Shown here piece by piece: positions 4,508 through 13,373 of a stretch of 64,000 bases of DNA. Position 1 is the stretch's first letter. Each line of letters starts with the position of its first letter. The translations under genes were made by a program, and so were the position numbers. The stretch spans positions 106,136 through 170,135 of the forward strand of contig CAVVTJ010000007.1 of the NCBI GenBank assembly GCA_963751145.1, written 5' to 3'. This stretch comes from an uncultured Alphaproteobacteria bacterium. GTDB taxonomy: Bacteria; Pseudomonadota; Alphaproteobacteria; Sphingomonadales; Sphingomonadaceae. Below the pieces are notes generated by a model. That model had not been told where the DNA came from and ran no database searches. It was given only the letters and a program-made list of their open reading frames with translations.

Positions 4508-4646
4508 GTGGCACCGTGTGATCGGCCCGCAGGCGATCCCGAAAATGTGCAGCAATTCAGCGCATTTTCGCAGGTCTGCGAAGCGCCTCTGGTGCTTTCA
4601 AGCGGGATGATCCCGGTCCACATAAGGCCGCACTAGGGGCAAAACG

Positions 4647-4661
4647 GTAACAATTCGTTAT
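4647..4661. promoter_or_regulatory. Degenerate CtrA-like box upstream of the CHASE2-EAL gene
   Basis: Reverse strand ATAACGAATTGTTACC matches the 1903 motif ATAACGAAATCGTAAC at 12 of 16 positions. Confidence 0.3.
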
Positions 4662-4698
4662 CCCTACCATGGGGTAAGGATGCCGGTTCCGCCTGCGC

Positions 4699-5814
4699 TC
4701 ACTCTTCGCCGTGACCGGCCGCAAGGTATTCGCTGCTTTGCATTTCCTTGAGCCGTGAGACGGTACGCTCGAATTCGAAGGCGCCATCGCCGCGGGGATA
4801 GAGCGCTTCGGGTTCGGCTGCGGCTGCGGCGAACAGCTTGACCTTGTTTTCGTACAAGGCATCGATCAGCGTCACAAAGCGCGCGGCTTCGTTGCGGTTT
4901 TCCGGGCCCATCTGCGGAATCCCGACCAGAATCACGGTGTGATAGGTCTGCGCGACTGCCAGGTAATCGGCCGCTCCGCGGGCCTCACCGCACAGCTTCC
5001 TGAAACTGAACACCGCCACACCCTTGAGGCTTTTGGGCACATGCAACACGCGGCCGCCGCCCAGCGCGAGATCGGCTGAGGGCACATGGGCACTGTCTTC
5101 AGGCGGATAGTCGGTCAGTCGAAAAAAGGCTTCGCGCACCTGATCGGTCGCCGCATCGCCTAGCGGGCTGTGCCAGGTGTCGATCCCGGCCAACCGTTCC
5201 AGCCGGTAATCGTGCGGGCCATTGAGCGCCATGACGTCAAGTTTCTGCTCGATCAGGGTGATGAAAGGCAGGAAATGCTCGCGGTTGAGGCCGTCCTTGT
5301 AGAGTTCTGACGGGGCACGGTTGCTGGTGGTGACGATCACCAGACCGTGGCTTTCGATCAGGGCGGTGAACAGCCGGCTCATGATCATCGCGTCGGCGGA
5401 ATTGTTGACCACCATCTCGTCAAAGGCCAGCACGCGCAGGTTCTCGGCGATTGCTGCGGCCACTGCCGGGATCGGATCGCCGCTCTCGCTTTTGCGCGCC
5501 TCACGCAGGCGGGCGTGGACTTCGATCATGAAGGCGTGAAAGTGGGCCCGGCGTTTCTCCGGGATGGCCAGACAGTGATGGAACAGGTCCATCAGCATCG
5601 ACTTACCGCGCCCGACGCCGCCCCATAGATAAAGCCCGCGCAGCGGCTTTGGCTTATGTCGCGCAAGCCGCCACAGCAGCGAACCGCGCGCCGGGATCGC
5701 CTCAAGCGCTTGTTGCAGGGCGTCCAGCCGCTCAGCCGCGGCGCGTTGCTCTGGATCGGCGCGCAGCTCACCCGCAGCGACAAGCGCTTCATACCGGGCC
5801 AGTACTGCAGTCAT
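4699..5814 (-). CDS. zapE: Cell division ATPase ZapE (AFG1/LACE1 family)
   Basis: Walker A GGVGRGKS, Walker B LAFDE, TTSNR and RFVTLIDALY motifs. Start moved to MTAVL (5814), which overlaps the upstream stop. Confidence 0.92.
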   Translation of the reverse strand: MTAVLARYEALVAAGELRADPEQRAAAERLDALQQALEAIPARGSLLWRLARHKPKPLRGLYLWGGVGRGKSMLMDLFHHCLAIPEKRRAHFHAFMIEVHARLREARKSESGDPIPAVAAAIAENLRVLAFDEMVVNNSADAMIMSRLFTALIESHGLVIVTTSNRAPSELYKDGLNREHFLPFITLIEQKLDVMALNGPHDYRLERLAGIDTWHSPLGDAATDQVREAFFRLTDYPPEDSAHVPSADLALGGGRVLHVPKSLKGVAVFSFRKLCGEARGAADYLAVAQTYHTVILVGIPQMGPENRNEAARFVTLIDALYENKVKLFAAAAAEPEALYPRGDGAFEFERTVSRLKEMQSSEYLAAGHGEE

Positions 5815-6272
5815 CTGGGGGAAGTGGGTTTGCGGATAGTGCCAGAAAATGCGGCGATCAAATTGCCTTCGCCTTGCTCCACCACGCCGCGCAGGAACAC
5901 CAGCCGCCGGGTCTCCTTGAGCAGCTCGGTCACCGCATCGCACGGTAGATCGGGCTTTCCCGCGCCGATAAACTGGACCGAGAGATCAAGCGTCACTGCT
6001 GTCCCCGCCTCGATAATCCCCAATTGGCGCGAGCAGGCGAACAGGCCGATATCGATTAGCGCCATCACCGCGGCGCCGTGGATATTGTTGCCCAGATTGG
6101 TGTGGCGGCGTTCAGGAAACATCCGCAGCCGCGCCTTGCCATCGGCGTCGGCGCGGACCAGCAGTTTTGGGAACATCCAGCTGTTGAAGCGCGTCGTGTC
6201 GTTCAGCTGCCAGGTCTGCCAGCCGGGATTGTCCGGATCGGGCTCGCTGCGGAAACCGCGATCGTCGCTCAA
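5811..6272 (-). CDS. PaaI family thioesterase (hotdog fold)
   Basis: [18 protein letters not shown] motif. Probable TTG start at 6272 overlapping the sdhB stop. Confidence 0.85.
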
Positions 6273-7054
6273 ACGTGGCGCTCCGCCTGCATCTTCTTGA
6301 TCTCGGCGATCGCGCGGGCAGGGCTGAGGCCCTTGGGGCAGACGTTGGCGCAATTCATGATCGTGTGGCAGCGATACAGCCGGAAGGGGTCTTCCAGCTC
6401 GTCGAGCCGCTCACCGGTCATTTCATCGCGGCTATCGGCCAGCCAGCGATAGGCCTGAAGCAGGATCGCTGGGCCGAGGAACTTGTCGCTGTTCCACCAG
6501 TAAGAGGGGCAGCTGGTCGAGCAGCAGGCGCACAGTATGCATTCGTACAGCCCATCCAGCTTTTCGCGCTGCTGCGGGCTTTGCAGCCGTTCCTTGCCCG
6601 AAGGCGTGGTGGAAACGGTTTGCAGCCACGGACGAATGCTGGCGTACTGGGCATAAAAGTGGGTGAAATCAGGAACCAGGTCCTTGATCACTTCCATGTG
6701 GGGCAGGGGGGTGATCCGCACATCGCCCGAGAGATCCTCGATCGCGGTGGTGCAGGCCAGACCGTTGCGGCCATTGATATTCATCGCGCAAGACCCGCAG
6801 ATTCCTTCGCGGCACGAACGGCGGAAGGTCAGTGTCGGGTCCATGTCCGACTTCATCTTGATCAGCGCATCGAGCACCATTGGCCCGCACTGGTCGAGAT
6901 CAATGTCAAACCGGTCATACCGCGGGTTCTGGCCCGAATCCGGATCGTAGCGATAGACCGTGAAAGTCTTTACCCGCGAACCCGCATTGGCCGCGCTGTG
7001 CTGCGTGCCGGTTTTCTGGATCTTGCTGTTAGCCGGAAGCGTGAAGGTCGCCAT
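6269..7054 (-). CDS. sdhB: Succinate dehydrogenase iron-sulfur subunit
   Basis: [29 protein letters not shown] and [14 protein letters not shown]e-S motifs. Confidence 0.98.
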
Positions 7055-7133
7055 GATAGTCCCTGATTGCCAGTACGAAGGCCTTGCGCGCCCTCTCTAG
7101 CGATTCAGGGCGTTGTAGCAAGTGCCCCTTCAG

Positions 7134-7670
7134 TCACAATGCGTCAGCAATTCCCCCTGGGCCTAGAAGCTTCGTGATGAGAATTGCGAGAGCAAGCGCG
7201 GCGATGACGATGGCGCCGATCATCATCAGACGCGCCATCGCCATCGGGCGTTCATTGCTGCTCAGCCATAATGGCGTATCAGCCGAAAAAAGAGCGGAAA
7301 GCTGCGACCCATCCAATCCTGCATCACCAAACTTTTGCGACCCGCCGATGATGCCGGCTTGAATACCTTCCGCGCTGGCCCCTTCGCCGCCGGGAGCCTG
7401 GTCTGGAAGGTGAATTTTCTGCCATGTCGGCATTTCGTCGGCTGTTTCTGTAGAAAAATTCAGCCGGTAAAGTCGAGCCAGTTCGCCGCGCGGCAAACCG
7501 CCCAGTCTGGCCCGGACGATTTCGATCCGCTGATTGACGGCACTTTCGGAAATACCAAGCAGGCCCGCAATTTCCTTGCTGGTGCGATTGTCAGCAACCA
7601 GCGCCAGCACTTCGCGCTGCTTTCTGGTTAGCTGCGGCAAGGATCGCTCTGCGTGAGCTCTGCTGTTCAT
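7134..7670 (-). CDS. LuxR-type HTH regulator with C-terminal transmembrane helix (paralog 1)
   Basis: LTRKQREVLALVADNRTSKEIAGLLGISESAVNQRIE is a LuxR/GerE HTH at the N-terminus; hydrophobic LMMIGAIVIAALALAILITKLL at the C-terminus. Start at MNSRA after an AAGAAGG RBS. Confidence 0.8.
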   Translation of the reverse strand: MNSRAHAERSLPQLTRKQREVLALVADNRTSKEIAGLLGISESAVNQRIEIVRARLGGLPRGELARLYRLNFSTETADEMPTWQKIHLPDQAPGGEGASAEGIQAGIIGGSQKFGDAGLDGSQLSALFSADTPLWLSSNERPMAMARLMMIGAIVIAALALAILITKLLGPGGIADAL

Positions 7671-7722
7671 TGTGCACCCTTCTTGCGGCATCATACCTCA
7701 CCGCGCCACTCTCGACAAATAC

Positions 7723-8226
7723 TCAACGCTGGTGCGGCTGATAATCCGGCCCCTTAACGCGAAGCGGCGCCTTTCCTCTGCGCCAATCGAAAAAGATTCC
7801 GGTCCAAAGCGCCACGACAAGCAGGGCGTTGGCCATTGCGGCGATCAGCTGGGAAGCCAGCGCGGCCGGACCAGTGAGCAGAGCCGCGCAGCCAAGAGCA
7901 AGCGCAGCCAGCAGTGCGGCTGCACCCGCAGCCAGCGGATATATTCGCCGCGAGCGTAGAACGATCGGCAATATCAAGCCCAAGCCAACGATTGCGCACA
8001 ACGCGTGAAGCCCGCTGCCCGAACCATAGGCCCACCATGCCAGCCCATGCAGCAATGCCATCGCAAAGGTAGCCGCCGCGAGCGCCTGAGCAGTGGGACG
8101 ACCGCAGCGCCAGGCAAGGATCAGCGTGCCCGCGATCACCAGCATCAAGGTCGATGGCCATTGCATCGTGAGCAGCGATAGCGCCGCTTGTCCGGGCTGG
8201 GTGATGGCGATGGGCGCGGGGTGCAT
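7723..8226 (-). CDS. Polytopic membrane protein of unknown function (about 5 TM)
   Basis: Almost entirely hydrophobic, with short basic loops (AWRCGRP, LRSRRIYPL). ATG overlaps the upstream TGA (TGATG). Confidence 0.7.
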   Translation of the reverse strand: MHPAPIAITQPGQAALSLLTMQWPSTLMLVIAGTLILAWRCGRPTAQALAAATFAMALLHGLAWWAYGSGSGLHALCAIVGLGLILPIVLRSRRIYPLAAGAAALLAALALGCAALLTGPAALASQLIAAMANALLVVALWTGIFFDWRRGKAPLRVKGPDYQPHQR

Positions 8227-8735
8227 CAGTTGGTCATGCGGGCCAATTTTTCGGCAGCATCTAGCAGGAGCACCAGGAGGGCAGCAAAACCCAACGCAAT
8301 GGCAACTATCAGTGCCAACCGGACCAGCACAGTTTCAGAGGCGGTCCGGGCGAAGAAAAAGGTGGAGGGTTGCAACACGCCGTGGCTCTTTGTGAAACCG
8401 GGGTTCTCAAGATCTACGGCACCCTCCGGCGACGAGGGTTGGATCGCCTCTCCCTCAATCTGAAGCTGGATTGGCTTACCTGTAAGTGAATTACTGGTCG
8501 GCAGGGTGATCAGCAAGGTGTTCTGGTGGCGATACAACCTGGCAATTTGAGAACGCGGCAAGCCGCCCAGCCGTTGTCTGATCGTTTCGATTCGCTGGTT
8601 GACAGCGCTTTCAGAAATGTCGATTTTTCGGGCGATTTCCTTGCTTGTCAGCCCTTCAGCCACCATTCGCAGCACTTCGCGCTGCTTCGGAGTGAGGGCG
8701 TCGAGCCGAGCTGACTGGTCTGATATCGCGGCCAT
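8226..8735 (-). CDS. LuxR-type HTH regulator with C-terminal transmembrane helix (paralog 2)
   Basis: LTPKQREVLRMVAEGLTSKEIARKIDISESAVNQRIE HTH; C-terminal LALIVAIALGFAALLVLLL helix. Confidence 0.8.
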   Translation of the reverse strand: MAAISDQSARLDALTPKQREVLRMVAEGLTSKEIARKIDISESAVNQRIETIRQRLGGLPRSQIARLYRHQNTLLITLPTSNSLTGKPIQLQIEGEAIQPSSPEGAVDLENPGFTKSHGVLQPSTFFFARTASETVLVRLALIVAIALGFAALLVLLLDAAEKLARMTN

Positions 8736-8925
8736 TTCGATTCGGTGAGGTAGCGCGCAACAGGGCTGGTACCAAATACATTCGGTTCAACGCCGGCTCT
8801 GCCTCTCGGGCGTGGATCGTTCAGCCTGGGGCGCGATTGGCGAAGCAAGTGCCGCCTAACGCCTGTTTCGCATTGCTCAACGCTGTGCCATTATGGCTGC
8901 GGGGCACTATAGCGAGGGCACGGGA

Positions 8926-9558
8926 ATGGGATTAGCTAGCTGGTATGATGAACATGTGGTGCCGCGCGTGATCAAATGCGCCTGCTCCTCTCCTGCAATA
9001 GCCAAAGCGCGCGGCAAGGTTGTGCCGCTGGCCCGGGGCAAGGTGTTTGAAATCGGTTGCGGAGGCGGGCTCAACCAGCCGTTTTACGATGCCGCTGCAG
9101 TTGAAAGTTTCGCTGGCATGGATCCTTCGGCCAAGGGTCTCGAATTTGCCCGCACTGCTGCCGCACAAATCGGCTGGCCGGCCGATATCCGCGAGGGCGT
9201 GGGCGAGGCGATACCGTTTGAGACAGAGACATTCGATACGGTGGTCTGTACCTTTACGCTCTGTTCAGTGGCCGATCCCGCGCGGACGTTGAGCGAGCTG
9301 CGCCGGATACTCAAGCCTGGCGGACAACTGCTTTTTGCTGAGCATGGCCGCGCGCCCGATGCGGGAGTGCAGGCCTGGCAAGGCCGGATTGAACCAGTGT
9401 GGAAGCGGTTGGCGGGTGGGTGCCATCTGTCGCGGCCGGTGACCACTGCGATTGCGCAGGCCGGGTTCAAACTGGGCCAGACTGAGCAGCGTTATGCGCC
9501 CGGGATGCCGCGCTGGGCGGGATGGATGGAATGGGGCGCGGCGACCAAGGCCACCTAG
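8926..9558 (+). CDS. Class I SAM-dependent methyltransferase
   Basis: VFEIGCGGG motif I, FDTVVCTFTLCSV, LKPGGQLLFAEHG. Start moved to MGLAS. Confidence 0.9.
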   Translation: MGLASWYDEHVVPRVIKCACSSPAIAKARGKVVPLARGKVFEIGCGGGLNQPFYDAAAVESFAGMDPSAKGLEFARTAAAQIGWPADIREGVGEAIPFETETFDTVVCTFTLCSVADPARTLSELRRILKPGGQLLFAEHGRAPDAGVQAWQGRIEPVWKRLAGGCHLSRPVTTAIAQAGFKLGQTEQRYAPGMPRWAGWMEWGAATKAT

Positions 9559-9568
9559 GCAAGCAGGA

Positions 9569-10543
9569 TCAGAAGCCACGCACTTCGCCCACCTGCATGA
9601 TCCAGGCGTTGGCTTCGCCGTATTGCTGATCGCGTGCGGCGTTGCGGAACCGGTCTGGCGCTTCGAAGGGATTTTCGGGCGTGAGCATGATGCTGCCCCA
9701 ATGCATGCCCACTGCAGCACGCGCGCCGATATCGCGGGCGATGGTGATCGCTTCTTCTGGCGTGGCGTGACTGGGTTCCATGATTACGCGCGGCTCGTAT
9801 GCGCCGATGCCGATCAGCGCGAGATCGAACGGCCCGGCCCGCTCACCAATCTCGCGGAAGCAGGCACCGTAGCCGCTATCGCCCCCGAACCAGACTTTTC
9901 GGGCTGGCGAGGTGAGCGCCATGCTGGCCCATAGTGTGCGATTGCGATCAAAGGGGCCGCGTCCGGAGAAATGCACCGCGGGTAAGGCCGTGACGGCCAG
10001 ATCGCCGAAAGCGCGGCTTTCCCACCAGTCCAATTCGTAGATTTCGGCAAAGCCCAGACGGCGCAGCAGGGCACCGACGCCCAAGGGGCAGATCACCGGC
10101 GTTTCGCCGCGCCAGCGATAGGCCTTCAATGCCGCAGTATCGATGTGATCGTAATGGTTGTGGCTGATCACAATCAGATCGAGCTGGGGCAGGTCCTGCG
10201 CTTCGACCGCTGCGGGCAGGAAACGGCGCGGGCCAAGGCCAAATGGACCGGCGACTTTGGCAAGATAGGGATCGGTTAGCACCAGTTTGCCGCCCAGCCG
10301 CATGGCAAAACAGGCGTGGCCCAGCCAGGCAAGTTCGTTCTCGGCCAGCGCGGCGAGATCGGGCGGTGCGGCAGCTGTTAAGCCTTCGGGTAACGGCGGG
10401 AGCTTCGCGCGGCGCATATCCCAGAGCAGGAATTTGAGGAAATCACGCAACCGGGCCCGGTTTTGCGGGCTACCCGGCGGGTTGCGATAGCCGCCACCGC
10501 TGCGGTGATGATAGGGGCGTTCAGGGGTTTGCGGATCGAGCAT
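9569..10543 (-). CDS. MBL-fold metallo-hydrolase (NAPE-PLD/RomA-like)
   Basis: WLGHA, SHNHYDH metal motif, AVHFSGRG, FGGDSGY, IGAYEPR, MHWG. Confidence 0.9.
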   Translation of the reverse strand: MLDPQTPERPYHHRSGGGYRNPPGSPQNRARLRDFLKFLLWDMRRAKLPPLPEGLTAAAPPDLAALAENELAWLGHACFAMRLGGKLVLTDPYLAKVAGPFGLGPRRFLPAAVEAQDLPQLDLIVISHNHYDHIDTAALKAYRWRGETPVICPLGVGALLRRLGFAEIYELDWWESRAFGDLAVTALPAVHFSGRGPFDRNRTLWASMALTSPARKVWFGGDSGYGACFREIGERAGPFDLALIGIGAYEPRVIMEPSHATPEEAITIARDIGARAAVGMHWGSIMLTPENPFEAPDRFRNAARDQQYGEANAWIMQVGEVRGF

Positions 10544-10647: not shown

Positions 10648-10667
10648 AGTGTGCAGTGATTTGCGGG

Positions 10668-13373
10668 TTATTCGCCGAAAGTGCGCTGCCACCAGCCGCG
10701 ACGCGGCTGACCCGAACTCTCTTCGTTGGTGCCGGCTTCAGCATCGACCGCTTCAGCGGTGACCGGTTCATTGGCCGGTTCGGCTGCCTTCTTGCGGCTG
10801 CGCTTGGGCTTGGCGGGGGCTTCTTCGGATACCGGTGCTTCGGTAGCTACAGGTGCTGCTTCGACTTCGGCTACGGCTTCAACCTCAGCATCGGCCTTCT
10901 TCTTGCGCACCCGCTTGGGCTTGGCTGGGGCTTCATCGGCCACGACTTCCGGTGCAGGCGCTGCTTCGGGTTCAGCCGGAGCATCCGCCTCGGCTTCAGC
11001 TTCGACATCGACCTTCTTGCGGCGGCTGCGCTTGGGCTTGGTCGGAGCTTCAACGGCAACCTCAACTTCAGCAGGAGCGGCTTCGTCGCCCTGGCTTTCG
11101 CCGTCGGCAGCTTCGCCAGCTTCAGCGTCTTCCGAGGACTGGCCTTCGCCGTCACCGCGGCCCTTGCCGCCGCGCCGCCGCCGGCCGCGCCGCCGCCGCT
11201 TGCGCGGTGCTTCGCCATCTTCGGCCCGCTCGGCTGCGGTGCGATCGTCGTCTTCCTCGCCTTCGCCTTCGCCGTCGTCTTCACCGGCGTCTGCGGTTTC
11301 ATCGTCGTTTTCGGCGCGCGGCGTTTCGTCACGATCACGATCGCGGCCACCACGCCGGCGGCGCTTGCGGCGGGGCTTGCCGCGTTCTTCTTCGCTTTCC
11401 TCGCTCGAACGCTCTTCGCTTTCGAGCTCTTCCTCATCCTCGATCAGATCATCGTCCTCTTCCTCAAGCGCGAGCGGCTCAAACCGGGGGACGAATTCTG
11501 GGCGGGGACCCGATGAACCGACGCGCATCTTGGCGCCTTCGTTCTCACCTTCAGGGAGGACTTCAACGCGCACGCCATAGCGGTGTTCGATTTCGGCGAG
11601 ATCACCGCGCTTGGCATTGAGCAGGTAAACCGCCGCTTCGGTGCTGGCGAACAACGAGATGACCGAGCCGCGGCCCTTGGCGGCTTCCTCTTCGATCAGG
11701 CGCAAGGCGGAAAGCCCGGCGCTAGAGGCGGTGCGGACCAGGCCGGTGCCGTCGCAGTGCGGGCAGCCGCGGGTGGTCGCTTCGAGCACCCCGGTGCGCA
11801 GCCGCTGGCGGCTCATTTCCATCAGCCCGAACGAGCTGATCCGGCCAACCTGGATCCGGGCGCGATCGTTCTTCAACGCATCCTTCATCGCCTTTTCGAC
11901 TTTGCGGATGTTGGAATTGTATTCCATGTCGATGAAATCGATCACCACCAGCCCGGCCATATCGCGCAGACGCAGCTGGCGGGCGATTTCGCGCGCAGCC
12001 TCAAGGTTGGTGTTGAGCGCGGTTGCCTCGATCCCATGTTCCTTGGTCGAACGGCCCGAGTTGATATCGATCGAAACCAGGGCTTCGGTCGGGTTGATGA
12101 CGATATAGCCGCCGCTTTTCAGCTGGACTTCGGGATCGTACATCGCGGTCAACTGATCTTCGGCGCCGTACCGCTGGAACAACGGCACCGGATCGGCATA
12201 TTGCTTCACCCGTTTGGCGTGGCTGGGCATCAGCAGCTTCATGAAGTCACGCGCGGCGCGGTAGCCGTGCTCGCCTTCAACCACCACATCCTCGATCTCG
12301 CGGTTGTAGATGTCGCGGATCGCTCTCTTGATCAGATCGCTGTCCGAATGGATCAGTGCTGGGGCGACGCTGCCCAAAGTCCGTTCGCGGATTTCGTCCC
12401 ACAGCCGCGCCAGGTAATCGAAGTCGCGCTTGATTTCGGTCTTCGTGCGCTGCAGCCCGGCAGTGCGGACGATGCAGCCCATACTTTTGGGCAGGTCCAT
12501 CTCGGCGATGATGGTCTTGAGGCGCTTGCGGTCGGCACCCGAGCTGATCTTGCGGCTGATGCCGCCGCCATGGCTGGAATTGGGCATCAGCACGCAATAG
12601 CGGCCAGCCAGGCTGAGGTATGTGGTCAGCGCTGCGCCCTTGTTGCCGCGTTCTTCCTTGACCACTTGCACCAGAAGTACCTGGCGCCGCTGGATCACGT
12701 CCTGGATCTTGTAACGGCGGCGCAGCGCCATGCGCTTGGCGCGCAGTTCGTCAGCTTCCTTGGCGTGGCCGCGATTACCCGAACCACCCTGACGGCGGCG
12801 GCCCCGACCGCGGCCGCGGCTATCGCCGTTTTCGCCGCCATCTTCGCCTTCGCCTGCTTCTTCGCTGTCATGATCGAAGGCGCCATCGACGTGGCCGTCT
12901 TCGATCGTGGCGACATCGTCCTTCTCGGACGTGTCAACTTCCATCACGCCGCCGAATTCATCGTCGTCGTGATGATCGTGGCTGGTGCCGGCCAAGTCAT
13001 CCGCCAGGCTTTCGCCCAGTTCATCGTCCCCGACGAAGTCTTCCTCACCCTCGGCAATGGCGCGCAGGGCGGCCTCTTCCTCAGCGTGAGCAGCCTCTTC
13101 GGCCAGCAAGGCCTCGCGGTCTTCCTTGGGGATCTGGTAGTAATCGGGGTGGATTTCGCTGAAGGCCAGAAAGCCGTGACGATTGCCGCCAAAATCGACG
13201 AATGCCGCTTGCAGCGATGGTTCTACCCGGGTGACCTTGGCAAGATAGATGTTGCCTTTGATCTGTTTGTGTTCGGCAGATTCGAAATCGAATTCGTCAA
13301 TCCGGTTGCCTTTTAGCACCGCCACCCGGGTTTCTTCCGGGTGGCGCGCATCGATAAGCATGCGCGTTGTCAT
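10668..13373 (-). CDS. rne: Ribonuclease E
   Basis: S1 domain GNIYLAKVTRVEPSLQAAFVDFG, DINSG and IDFIDM catalytic motifs, CPHC Zn-link, long charged disordered C-terminus. Confidence 0.97.
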   Translation of the reverse strand: MTTRMLIDARHPEETRVAVLKGNRIDEFDFESAEHKQIKGNIYLAKVTRVEPSLQAAFVDFGGNRHGFLAFSEIHPDYYQIPKEDREALLAEEAAHAEEEAALRAIAEGEEDFVGDDELGESLADDLAGTSHDHHDDDEFGGVMEVDTSEKDDVATIEDGHVDGAFDHDSEEAGEGEDGGENGDSRGRGRGRRRQGGSGNRGHAKEADELRAKRMALRRRYKIQDVIQRRQVLLVQVVKEERGNKGAALTTYLSLAGRYCVLMPNSSHGGGISRKISSGADRKRLKTIIAEMDLPKSMGCIVRTAGLQRTKTEIKRDFDYLARLWDEIRERTLGSVAPALIHSDSDLIKRAIRDIYNREIEDVVVEGEHGYRAARDFMKLLMPSHAKRVKQYADPVPLFQRYGAEDQLTAMYDPEVQLKSGGYIVINPTEALVSIDINSGRSTKEHGIEATALNTNLEAAREIARQLRLRDMAGLVVIDFIDMEYNSNIRKVEKAMKDALKNDRARIQVGRISSFGLMEMSRQRLRTGVLEATTRGCPHCDGTGLVRTASSAGLSALRLIEEEAAKGRGSVISLFASTEAAVYLLNAKRGDLAEIEHRYGVRVEVLPEGENEGAKMRVGSSGPRPEFVPRFEPLALEEEDDDLIEDEEELESEERSSEESEEERGKPRRKRRRRGGRDRDRDETPRAENDDETADAGEDDGEGEGEEDDDRTAAERAEDGEAPRKRRRRGRRRRGGKGRGDGEGQSSEDAEAGEAADGESQGDEAAPAEVEVAVEAPTKPKRSRRKKVDVEAEAEADAPAEPEAAPAPEVVADEAPAKPKRVRKKKADAEVEAVAEVEAAPVATEAPVSEEAPAKPKRSRKKAAEPANEPVTAEAVDAEAGTNEESSGQPRRGWWQRTFGE

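Follow-up and report, generated by a model that had tools for sequence, protein, structure and literature searches.

Genes and features at the locus

The window analyzed here is a stretch of 64,000 nucleotides from an uncultured alphaproteobacterium of the family Sphingomonadaceae (GenBank assembly GCA_963751145.1, contig CAVVTJ010000007.1, positions 106,136 to 170,135). Three adjacent genes on its minus strand, named B, M and A in the order in which they are read, encode two LuxR-type helix-turn-helix (HTH) regulators, B and A, separated by a polytopic membrane protein, M. They are followed by sdhB (Table 1). An earlier note, made from the letters of this stretch alone, had singled out the three genes as a candidate signalling triad. 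We confirmed that the observation behind it is real and more than chance, and re-cut its interpretation to a B–M pair and an independent paralog A. In our reading, B and M form a two-gene operon in which B, a tail-anchored regulator of the LuxR type, is under the control of M; the related paralog A stands alone. We put the probability of this reading slightly above even, at roughly 0.55.

B, M, A, sdhB and a 4HBT thioesterase gene are five minus-strand genes inside 8735–5811, with short gaps or none between them, in a window of ~62% G+C. The close relatives of the locus are all Novosphingobium genomes or metagenome-assembled genomes, and the runs that matched the locus sequence were all DNA runs of sediment or freshwater metagenomes, with no RNA run among them from which operon structure could be read. 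We fetched 78 genome loci with a regulator profile and mapped the window proteins onto each of them, and surveyed regulator–M adjacency over ~90 related loci. Transmembrane (TM) calls for A, B and M are based on hydropathy, AlphaFold2 models and conservation, and topology is predicted throughout.

Table 1. Positions of the genes, protein segments and promoter-like elements in the window (aa, amino acids; ORF, open reading frame; AF2, AlphaFold2; KD, Kyte-Doolittle).
Feature	Position	Strand	Basis	Remarks
B	8226–8735	minus	ORF list	169 aa
M	7723–8226	minus	ORF list	167 aa
A	7134–7670	minus	ORF list	178 aa; alternative upstream ATG at 7694 gives 186 aa
sdhB (succinate dehydrogenase iron-sulfur subunit)	6269–7054	minus	Pfam Fer2_3 and Fer4_8 on orthologs	
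B HTH domain, residues 13–66	8538–8699	minus	Pfam GerE envelope	Invariant SKEI...SAVNQRIE recognition helix
B linker motif TLLITLPTSNSLTGKPIQLQ, residues 73–92	8460–8519	minus	Conserved in 101 sequences	Predicted unstructured
B predicted TM helix, residues 140–158	8262–8318	minus	Hydropathy, AF2 helix, family conservation	Followed by an 11-aa tail
A predicted TM helix LMMIGAIVIAALALAILIT	7173–7229	minus	KD maximum; conserved in A orthologs	Followed by the tail KLLGPGGIADAL
M loop motif RSRRIYP, residues 91–97	7936–7956	minus	Family consensus LR(S/A)xRxYP	Predicted cytoplasmic
Promoter-like element of B, GAATGTATTTGGTACCAG-N11-GCTA	8751–8783	minus	Alignment of 46 upstream regions	Conserved; function inferred
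Promoter-like element of A, TTGTCG-17-TATGAT	7690–7718	minus	Consensus scan	
Promoter-like element of sdhB, CTTGCT-N15-GCTAGAGA	7094–7122	minus		In the A–sdhB spacer, directly after the A stop codon

A and B are predicted membrane-anchored GerE regulators

As the earlier note had stated, both regulators begin with a LuxR-type HTH: against the Pfam GerE model (PF00196, cutoff 23.5 bits), B scored 47.3 bits over residues 13–66 and A scored 30.5 bits. Consistently, a profile of 101 B-type sequences matched in the Protein Data Bank (PDB) only the DNA-binding domains of NarL, GerE, DosR, RhlR and EL222, over residues 11–65 and with E values of 2.5e-7 to 4e-5 for NarL, GerE and DosR. AlphaFold2 predicted a four-helix HTH for B (helices 16–26, 31–38, 42–55 and 61–72) with a predicted local distance difference test score (pLDDT) of ~90, a linker (residues 73–131) with a pLDDT of 50–65 and a C-terminal helix (residues 132–168) with a pLDDT of ~97. 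Each regulator contains a single strong hydrophobic segment at its C-terminus, with KD maxima in a 19-residue window of 3.12 for B and 2.82 for A, and the tail after the predicted TM helix measures 11 residues in B and 12 in A. The single C-terminal helix described for each regulator was thus borne out and is predicted to be transmembrane by hydropathy, conservation and, for B, the AlphaFold2 model. Having both a DNA-binding domain and a predicted TM segment in one polypeptide, A and B are predicted membrane-anchored GerE regulators and fall under the definition of transmembrane transcriptional regulators (TTRs) given by Demey et al. (2023).

The linker of B is predicted to be disordered and carries the near-invariant short motifs TIPTSNSLTGKPIQLQ, EGA and LQPST. 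Residues T77, P79, T80, S81, N82, L84, T85, G86, I89 and L91 are near-invariant over the 101 sequences, and the motif TLLITLPTSNSLTGKPIQLQ probably serves as a short linear docking motif.

The claim that both regulators lack a receiver and an autoinducer-binding domain agrees with our Pfam and NCBIfam scans. Pfam gave no Response_reg match in A or B and no Autoind_bind match (PF03472) at E ≤ 1. The NCBIfam models for SdiA and PA1136-type proteins covered the HTH only, and the NarL, ErdR and FixJ models were confined to their own C-terminal HTH, in each case with scores far under the cutoff. Trans_reg_C, the OmpR-type winged helix, did not match either regulator, the domain in both being GerE. 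We also rejected an identity as extracytoplasmic function (ECF) sigma or anti-sigma factors, as the similarity is at the level of region 4 only; TIGR02937 scored 33.2 on B and 22.8 on A against a cutoff of 42.9, at profile positions 113–161 only. PADLOC returned only HTH-level matches to CARF/CasR regulators and hence no link to a defence system.

A word-indexed search with B found 608 homologs, and most of the 120 best listed are ~170 aa long, with most or all of the query covered. The B gene ends early in three genomes (L046:1892–2140, L047:3890–4210 and L034:527–607), where it encodes 26–106 aa and no TM helix; L034 and L047 keep an intact M ORF despite the shortened B. These short forms could be pseudogenes, sequencing errors or naturally soluble HTH variants.

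The ATG at 7670 is the most likely start of A, because the conserved −10-like TATGAT (7695–7690) covers the alternative ATG at 7694; the gene calls for A orthologs likewise give 178 aa. A and B align with 69% identity over 59 aa (E = 6e-24), a similarity restricted to the HTH, and as orthologous groups they are 67% identical in the HTH and ~17% identical in the linker plus TM helix. The 18 identical nucleotides noted earlier in the two HTH genes are present in exactly two copies in the window (7605–7622 and 8670–8687), against 0 expected in 100 shuffles. The short linker motif noted along with them (TGKPIQL in A, TWQKIHL in B) is likewise real and recurs across the wider regulator family. Because their recognition helices are near-identical (ISESAVNQRIE in both), A and B could bind the same operators, and shared operators, cross-talk or A/B heterodimers may occur.

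M defines a divergent family of predicted five-helix membrane proteins

The start codon of M overlaps the stop codon of B by one base (TGATG), and the AlphaFold2 model of M (pLDDT 70) contains five TM helices (residues 26–41, 44–67, 72–91, 95–116 and 120–152). The earlier description of a ~5-TM protein translationally coupled to B therefore stands, and the pairing is conserved elsewhere, as detailed below. The density of lysine plus arginine over 39 members of the M family is 1.4 in loop 1, 2.1 in loop 3 and 5.0 in the C-tail, compared with 0.9, 0.7 and 0.1 on the other side, a pattern that fits a 5-TM topology with the N-terminus out and the C-terminus in (N-out/C-in). The segments predicted to face outward are an N-terminus of ~17 aa and loops of ~10 and ~5 aa.

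M family members are highly divergent (~25% identity), and their conservation is limited to an Arg-rich loop, LR(S/A)xRxYP, between TM3 and TM4, plus Leu and Gly. This motif loop has the highest lysine plus arginine density among the loops of M, consistent with the cytoplasmic side. Homologs are named only "hypothetical protein" in the source records, and Pfam, NCBIfam and PADLOC gave no match to M. The receptor- or protease-like fold that the earlier note had proposed to look for with Foldseek did not emerge: the M model retrieved nothing from the PDB at E ≤ 1e-3, with a query-normalised TM-score (TMq) of at most 0.44, and what was listed were generic helical bundles (rhodopsins and designed proteins) at E > 0.5.

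These results bear on another suggestion of that note, a role of M as release factor for regulated proteolysis, and on the variant in which M is itself the protease; in both, intramembrane cleavage would set the HTH domain of B free. B, as a type II single-pass protein with a very short external tail, would be typical of intramembrane-protease substrates, and M is polytopic and co-translated with it. However, the conserved positions of M (the Arg-rich loop with Tyr-Pro, Leu and Gly) offer no possible catalytic His, Asp, Glu, Ser or Cys, with no invariant His, Asp, Glu or Ser among 27–40 aligned sequences, and the lack of domain and fold matches speaks against the idea as well. The missing catalytic-type residues make any role of M as an enzyme or protease unlikely, and we regard release of B by M as a very improbable mechanism. 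An identity of M as a site-2 protease (S2P, M50; catalytic residues HExxH...D), a rhomboid (Ser-His) or a CAAX/Abi protein (EExxxR...H) was likewise rejected, as the M alignment shows no conserved residues of these kinds and M has no Pfam, NCBIfam or fold match.

The B–M pair is the conserved unit

Word-indexed searches suit M badly, since its hydrophobic words fill up the list of candidates: they yielded only 10 matches for the sequence alone and 21 for a profile. To map where M occurs, we instead ran a local iterative profile on the fetched loci, over all ORFs of 90 aa or more on either strand. The ORF after B, which is beyond the reach of BLAST in most genomes, was recovered by this profile as M in 39 loci with E values of 1e-23 to 1e-54. 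In 44 of the 44 loci that have M, the M homolog immediately follows a regulator gene and is read in the same direction, and look-ups centred on M found a GerE gene directly upstream in all five cases. In 23 of 41 loci, M begins before the regulator gene has ended, with 4 nt in common in 19 of them and 1 nt in the other 4; in 10 further loci the two genes are at most 20 nt apart, which brings such tight junctions to 33 of 41. Regulator–M pairing was also found with a third, more distant regulator type, outside sdhB contexts (L068, L072, L073, L081, L082 and L083). Regulators paired with M share the TM signature (I/V)AIAxG(L/M), a pattern chosen post hoc, which is absent from the A type. An M homolog beside an A-type gene was never found among these ORFs in any of the loci.

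Several of the non-sdhB loci have features of their own. In L082, an extra soluble ORF of ~111 aa (4600–4935) without a Pfam match lies between the regulator and M, and a gap of ~460 nt separates the two genes in L068, L073 and L081. In L083, M is followed by a gene for 190 aa (L083:5167–5739) with a sub-threshold MarR match (23.7 versus 24.6 bits), and sdhB is located 3.6 kb downstream.

Upstream of sdhB, which is 87–100% identical across loci, three gene orders prevail. B-M-A-sdhB was found in ~22 loci, B-M-sdhB without A in ~17, and A-sdhB without B or M in ~30, among them the loci of strain APW14 and of N. arvoryzae, which is in culture. Counting loci that have B-M and loci that lack it, A immediately precedes sdhB in ~50. 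The earlier note had treated the three parts as one system, and an obligate triad, in which a membrane-bound A/B heterodimer is the regulator and M the sensor common to both, would agree with the adjacency of the three genes on one strand with short gaps, with recognition and dimerisation helices that are nearly the same in A as in B, and with the ~22 genomes that keep the full arrangement. It conflicts, however, with the ~30 genomes that have A without B-M and the ~17 that have B-M without A. Moreover, M never adjoins a solo A, the TM helix and linker of A are unlike those of all M-paired regulators, and the promoter-like element in front of A is its own and does not differ between triad and solo genomes. 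An obligate triad is thus improbable in our view. Because B-M and A-sdhB occur apart, M is never beside the A type and the genes have their own promoter-like elements, the conserved unit is the B–M pair, and A is an independent gene that is next downstream of B-M in one sublineage. Of the co-occurrence in other genomes on which the earlier note had made its triad depend, the part concerning the regulator–M pair holds in other genomes, and A is not tied to B-M.

Promoter-like elements and the sdhB neighbourhood

B, A and sdhB each have a separate conserved promoter-like element. The consensus upstream of B reads GAATGTATTTG(G/T)TACCAG...GCTA, and its conserved element, at ~17 nt, is longer than a −35 box. 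The element upstream of A, GATTG(T/C)-N17-TAnnnT, is the one found unchanged in triad and solo genomes. That of sdhB, with the consensus CTTGC(C/T)CC-N14-GCTAGAGA, is near-invariant over 46 loci and resembles the alphaproteobacterial sigma-70 consensus TTGACGS-N10-14-GCTANAWC.

In solo-A genomes, an inverted repeat, GCAATC-N9-GATTGC, lies over the −35-like box of the A promoter, ~60–30 nt upstream of the A start. It was seen in L049, L052, L057–L059, L064, L071, L079 and L080 and is not evident in the A promoter of the window; it is a candidate autoregulatory operator. The leader of sdhB (7078–7090, minus strand) can form a short hairpin, weak in the window and without an Rfam match, which is clearer in L049, L052, L057, L058, L064, L079 and L080. 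Its stem varies between species yet remains paired (GCGGC/GCCGC, GCGGTC/GACCGC and GCGATT/GATCGC).

sdhB is located away from sdhCDA and heads a conserved run of sdhB, the 4HBT thioesterase gene and, as the sixth gene of the locus, an AFG1/ZapE ATPase gene, all overlapping or abutting. It is a conserved downstream neighbour of the regulators. The proximity does raise the question of whether A and B, instead of responding to signals, are constitutive membrane tethers of DNA loci, for example holding the sdhB region at the membrane for co-translational insertion or assembly. In favour of this, A is fixed beside this membrane-complex subunit gene in ~50 genomes and has no sensory domain. SdhB, however, is a peripheral iron-sulfur subunit and not an integral membrane protein, regulator–M pairs also occur away from sdhB, the sdhB adjacency may be synteny inherited within one genus, and a tether would have no known binding site here. 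We consider tethering most unlikely.

On its other side, B is flanked by a divergently transcribed methyltransferase gene. In one relative (L001:3673–4334 and L002:2757–3418), BLAST matches the divergent methyltransferase as two pieces that overlap but differ in frame, and the gene call is only 146 aa long, which suggests a frameshift. An Rfam scan of 6000–9600 gave one sub-threshold microRNA match, which we read as chance. Further away, the RNase E gene (10668–13373, minus strand) has a long C-terminal region of acidic and basic low-complexity repeats, as a result of which the other strand contains several long ORFs that are spurious (10656–11620).

A proposed model for the control of B by M

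In the mechanism that we propose, B would be held at the inner membrane by its C-terminal helix (N-in, tail-anchored), with its DNA-binding domain in the cytoplasm on a flexible linker of ~60 residues that carries the conserved short motifs. M would be its dedicated 5-TM partner, N-out/C-in and with almost no periplasmic exposure, and would bind the TM helix and juxtamembrane linker of B, probably via the cytoplasmic loop LRxxRxYP. This contact is suggested by the TM signature of M-paired regulators, the near-invariant motifs in the B linker and the cytoplasm-facing motif of M. M would then set the amount of active B by holding it in or out of a DNA-binding-competent dimer. Alternatively, M may shield the TM helix of B from intramembrane proteolysis, an attractive option, since a tail-anchored regulator would need no site-1 cleavage. 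Either logic would be akin to that of ToxS, TcpH and VtrC with their regulators, or of LysP with CadC. Because neither B nor M has a periplasmic domain, any signal would have to be perceived within the bilayer or on the cytoplasmic side. A would be the older paralog and work alone, from a promoter of its own and in no need of M; its place immediately before sdhB is fixed across Novosphingobium.

Several points weigh against this model. A regulator without an adjacent M exists: in five loci (L029, L037, L041, L043 and L044), a B-like gene directly precedes sdhB and M is missing. The surveyed loci are almost all from Novosphingobium, so part of the synteny reflects shared ancestry and not independent selection, and mirror-tree partial correlations are ~0.8 for B-M, A-M and A-B alike, and therefore do not discriminate. 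Within the window, no second copy of the B-promoter motif was found at up to 3 mismatches, and no target operator of the regulators was identified. Membrane insertion of A and B is predicted, and the physical interaction of B with M, its regulatory consequence and the targets are all inferred. Finally, M could be merely a co-transcribed target gene and not a partner.

This last point leads to an alternative in which M is cargo, a small membrane protein with a separate function (for instance in stress or at the envelope), and B autoregulates the B-M operon. Regulators are often encoded beside their own targets, the length of the B-promoter element would fit an autoregulatory operator, and M has no domain suggesting sensing. 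On the other hand, divergent subfamilies in different genomic contexts all keep strictly to the pairing, and the conserved stop/start overlap is a usual companion of stoichiometric complexes. Cargo would also leave unexplained that so fast-evolving a protein as M has kept one cytoplasmic loop motif and that the M-paired regulators have a TM signature in common. We take cargo to be a rather unlikely explanation.

The reading of B-M as an operon in which M controls B can be extended to a site-1-independent intramembrane switch. S2P proteases generally cut type II single-pass proteins, and the PDZ filter of RseP excludes those with large periplasmic parts, so no site-1 cleavage would be needed for a tail-anchored regulator. 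B would be a constitutive S2P substrate unless M shields its TM helix, and M would sense, within the bilayer, the lipid state, the membrane potential or a quinone-like ligand. The LuxR domain, freed into the cytoplasm, would compete or heterodimerise with permanently tethered A at shared operators, possibly around the respiratory gene sdhB. This extension is speculative and improbable; if true, it would represent a previously undescribed coupling of membrane state to transcription via a new 5-TM family.

Comparison with known systems

B–M works like a co-component transmembrane regulator but stands apart from the ToxR-like family in its DNA-binding fold, its lack of periplasmic domains and its polytopic partner. 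As in ToxR/ToxS, TcpP/TcpH and VtrA/VtrC, an N-terminal cytoplasmic DNA-binding domain and one TM helix are combined with a membrane partner encoded immediately downstream. The partners of ToxR, TcpP and VtrA inhibit proteolysis or promote heterodimers (PMC10269533), and co-component partners are described as modulating regulator stability or dimerisation (PMC10269533; PMC9214523). ToxR-type regulators, however, bind DNA through a winged helix of the OmpR type and carry a folded sensor domain in the periplasm, whereas B has a GerE HTH and a tail of ~11 residues. Their partners of the ToxS/TcpH/VtrC type are single-pass proteins with a periplasmic lipocalin-like domain, whereas M has five TM helices and no periplasmic domain. 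The ToxR-like architecture invoked in the earlier note is hence retained for the downstream membrane partner gene in an operon, but not for transmembrane sensing, since the tails are ~11 residues long and M is little exposed.

CadC and LysP contact each other through TM helices. Like the proposed B–M system, they consist of a membrane-bound one-component regulator under the control of a polytopic membrane protein. LysP, however, is a 12-TM amino-acid transporter encoded elsewhere, whereas M has five TM helices, belongs to no known family and is translationally coupled; CadC, unlike B, also senses pH with a large domain in the periplasm. Table 1 of Demey et al. gives polytopic LysP as the partner of CadC (PMC10269533).

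RseA, which is cut by the S2P RseP in the sigma-E pathway of regulated intramembrane proteolysis, resembles B in spanning the membrane once in the type II (N-in) orientation and in acting on transcription through its cytoplasmic domain. Substrates of S2P/RseP are generally of this type, RseP excludes large periplasmic regions by its PDZ domains, and a short periplasmic part is a condition for access (PMC10470546). Unlike B and A, RseA is an anti-sigma factor and does not bind DNA; cleavage of B or A is hypothetical and would need no site-1 step.

The DNA-binding domain of A and B is homologous to the four-helix GerE-type domain of the NarL/FixJ/LuxR response regulators and of the quorum-sensing LuxR receptors. 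In A and B, however, the HTH is at the N-terminus instead of the C-terminus, and a predicted membrane anchor takes the place of a regulatory domain.

Breadth and meaning of the family

Searched exhaustively with HMMER, 1.84 billion representatives yielded 458 matches to the regulator family at E ≤ 1e-10. Among the top 150, 96 of the 102 matches of 140–260 aa have a C-terminal hydrophobic helix followed by a tail of 0–30 residues. The family with a LuxR-type HTH, a flexible linker and a tail anchor comprises at least ~100 clusters at 50% identity. Five of the listed entries (P0148, P0150, P0152, P0157 and P0158) are giant predicted proteins of 2,854–7,703 aa with 9–19 separate LuxR-HTH-like stretches.

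Proteins of this general build have been catalogued before. The census of Demey et al. (2023) counts 4,943 GerE-type TTRs (9.8%), which makes GerE the third commonest DNA-binding domain among them (PMC10269533). It lists GerE-only, single-TM proteins of 146–191 aa from Sphingomonadales: Saro_1238, Sala_2486, Sala_2898, Swit_0394, Swit_2814 and SJA_C1-26270 (PMC10269533). The species are N. aromaticivorans, Sphingopyxis alaskensis, Sphingomonas wittichii and Sphingobium japonicum, and Saro_1238, at 167 aa, is the Novosphingobium entry (PMC10269533). By the description in the catalogue, these proteins are like A and B in that a single polypeptide both carries the DNA-binding domain and has one or more TM regions; the census is purely computational and gives no subfamily, partner gene or function for them (PMC10269533). 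We found no paper on Saro_1238 and, in the literature, no characterised member of the A/B subfamily. LuxR402 of Novosphingobium sp. HR1a, a LuxR solo of 291 aa, was considered and is unrelated. Already known, then, is the architecture of the GerE-type single-TM regulator; new are the dedicated 5-TM partner family and the all-cytoplasmic or intramembrane layout.

The locus defines a large uncharacterised subfamily, one branch of which is always paired with a dedicated, unannotated 5-TM protein. The practical gain is modest and consists of improved Sphingomonadales annotation and a hypothesis for cultivable Novosphingobium, and the pairing offers a function to look for in a family now labelled "hypothetical". 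Membrane-bound one-component regulators are numerous, but few have been studied, mostly ToxR-like ones from enterics and vibrios. The B–M pair is a compact test case for the perception of a signal within the membrane, or at its cytoplasmic face, by a transcription factor.

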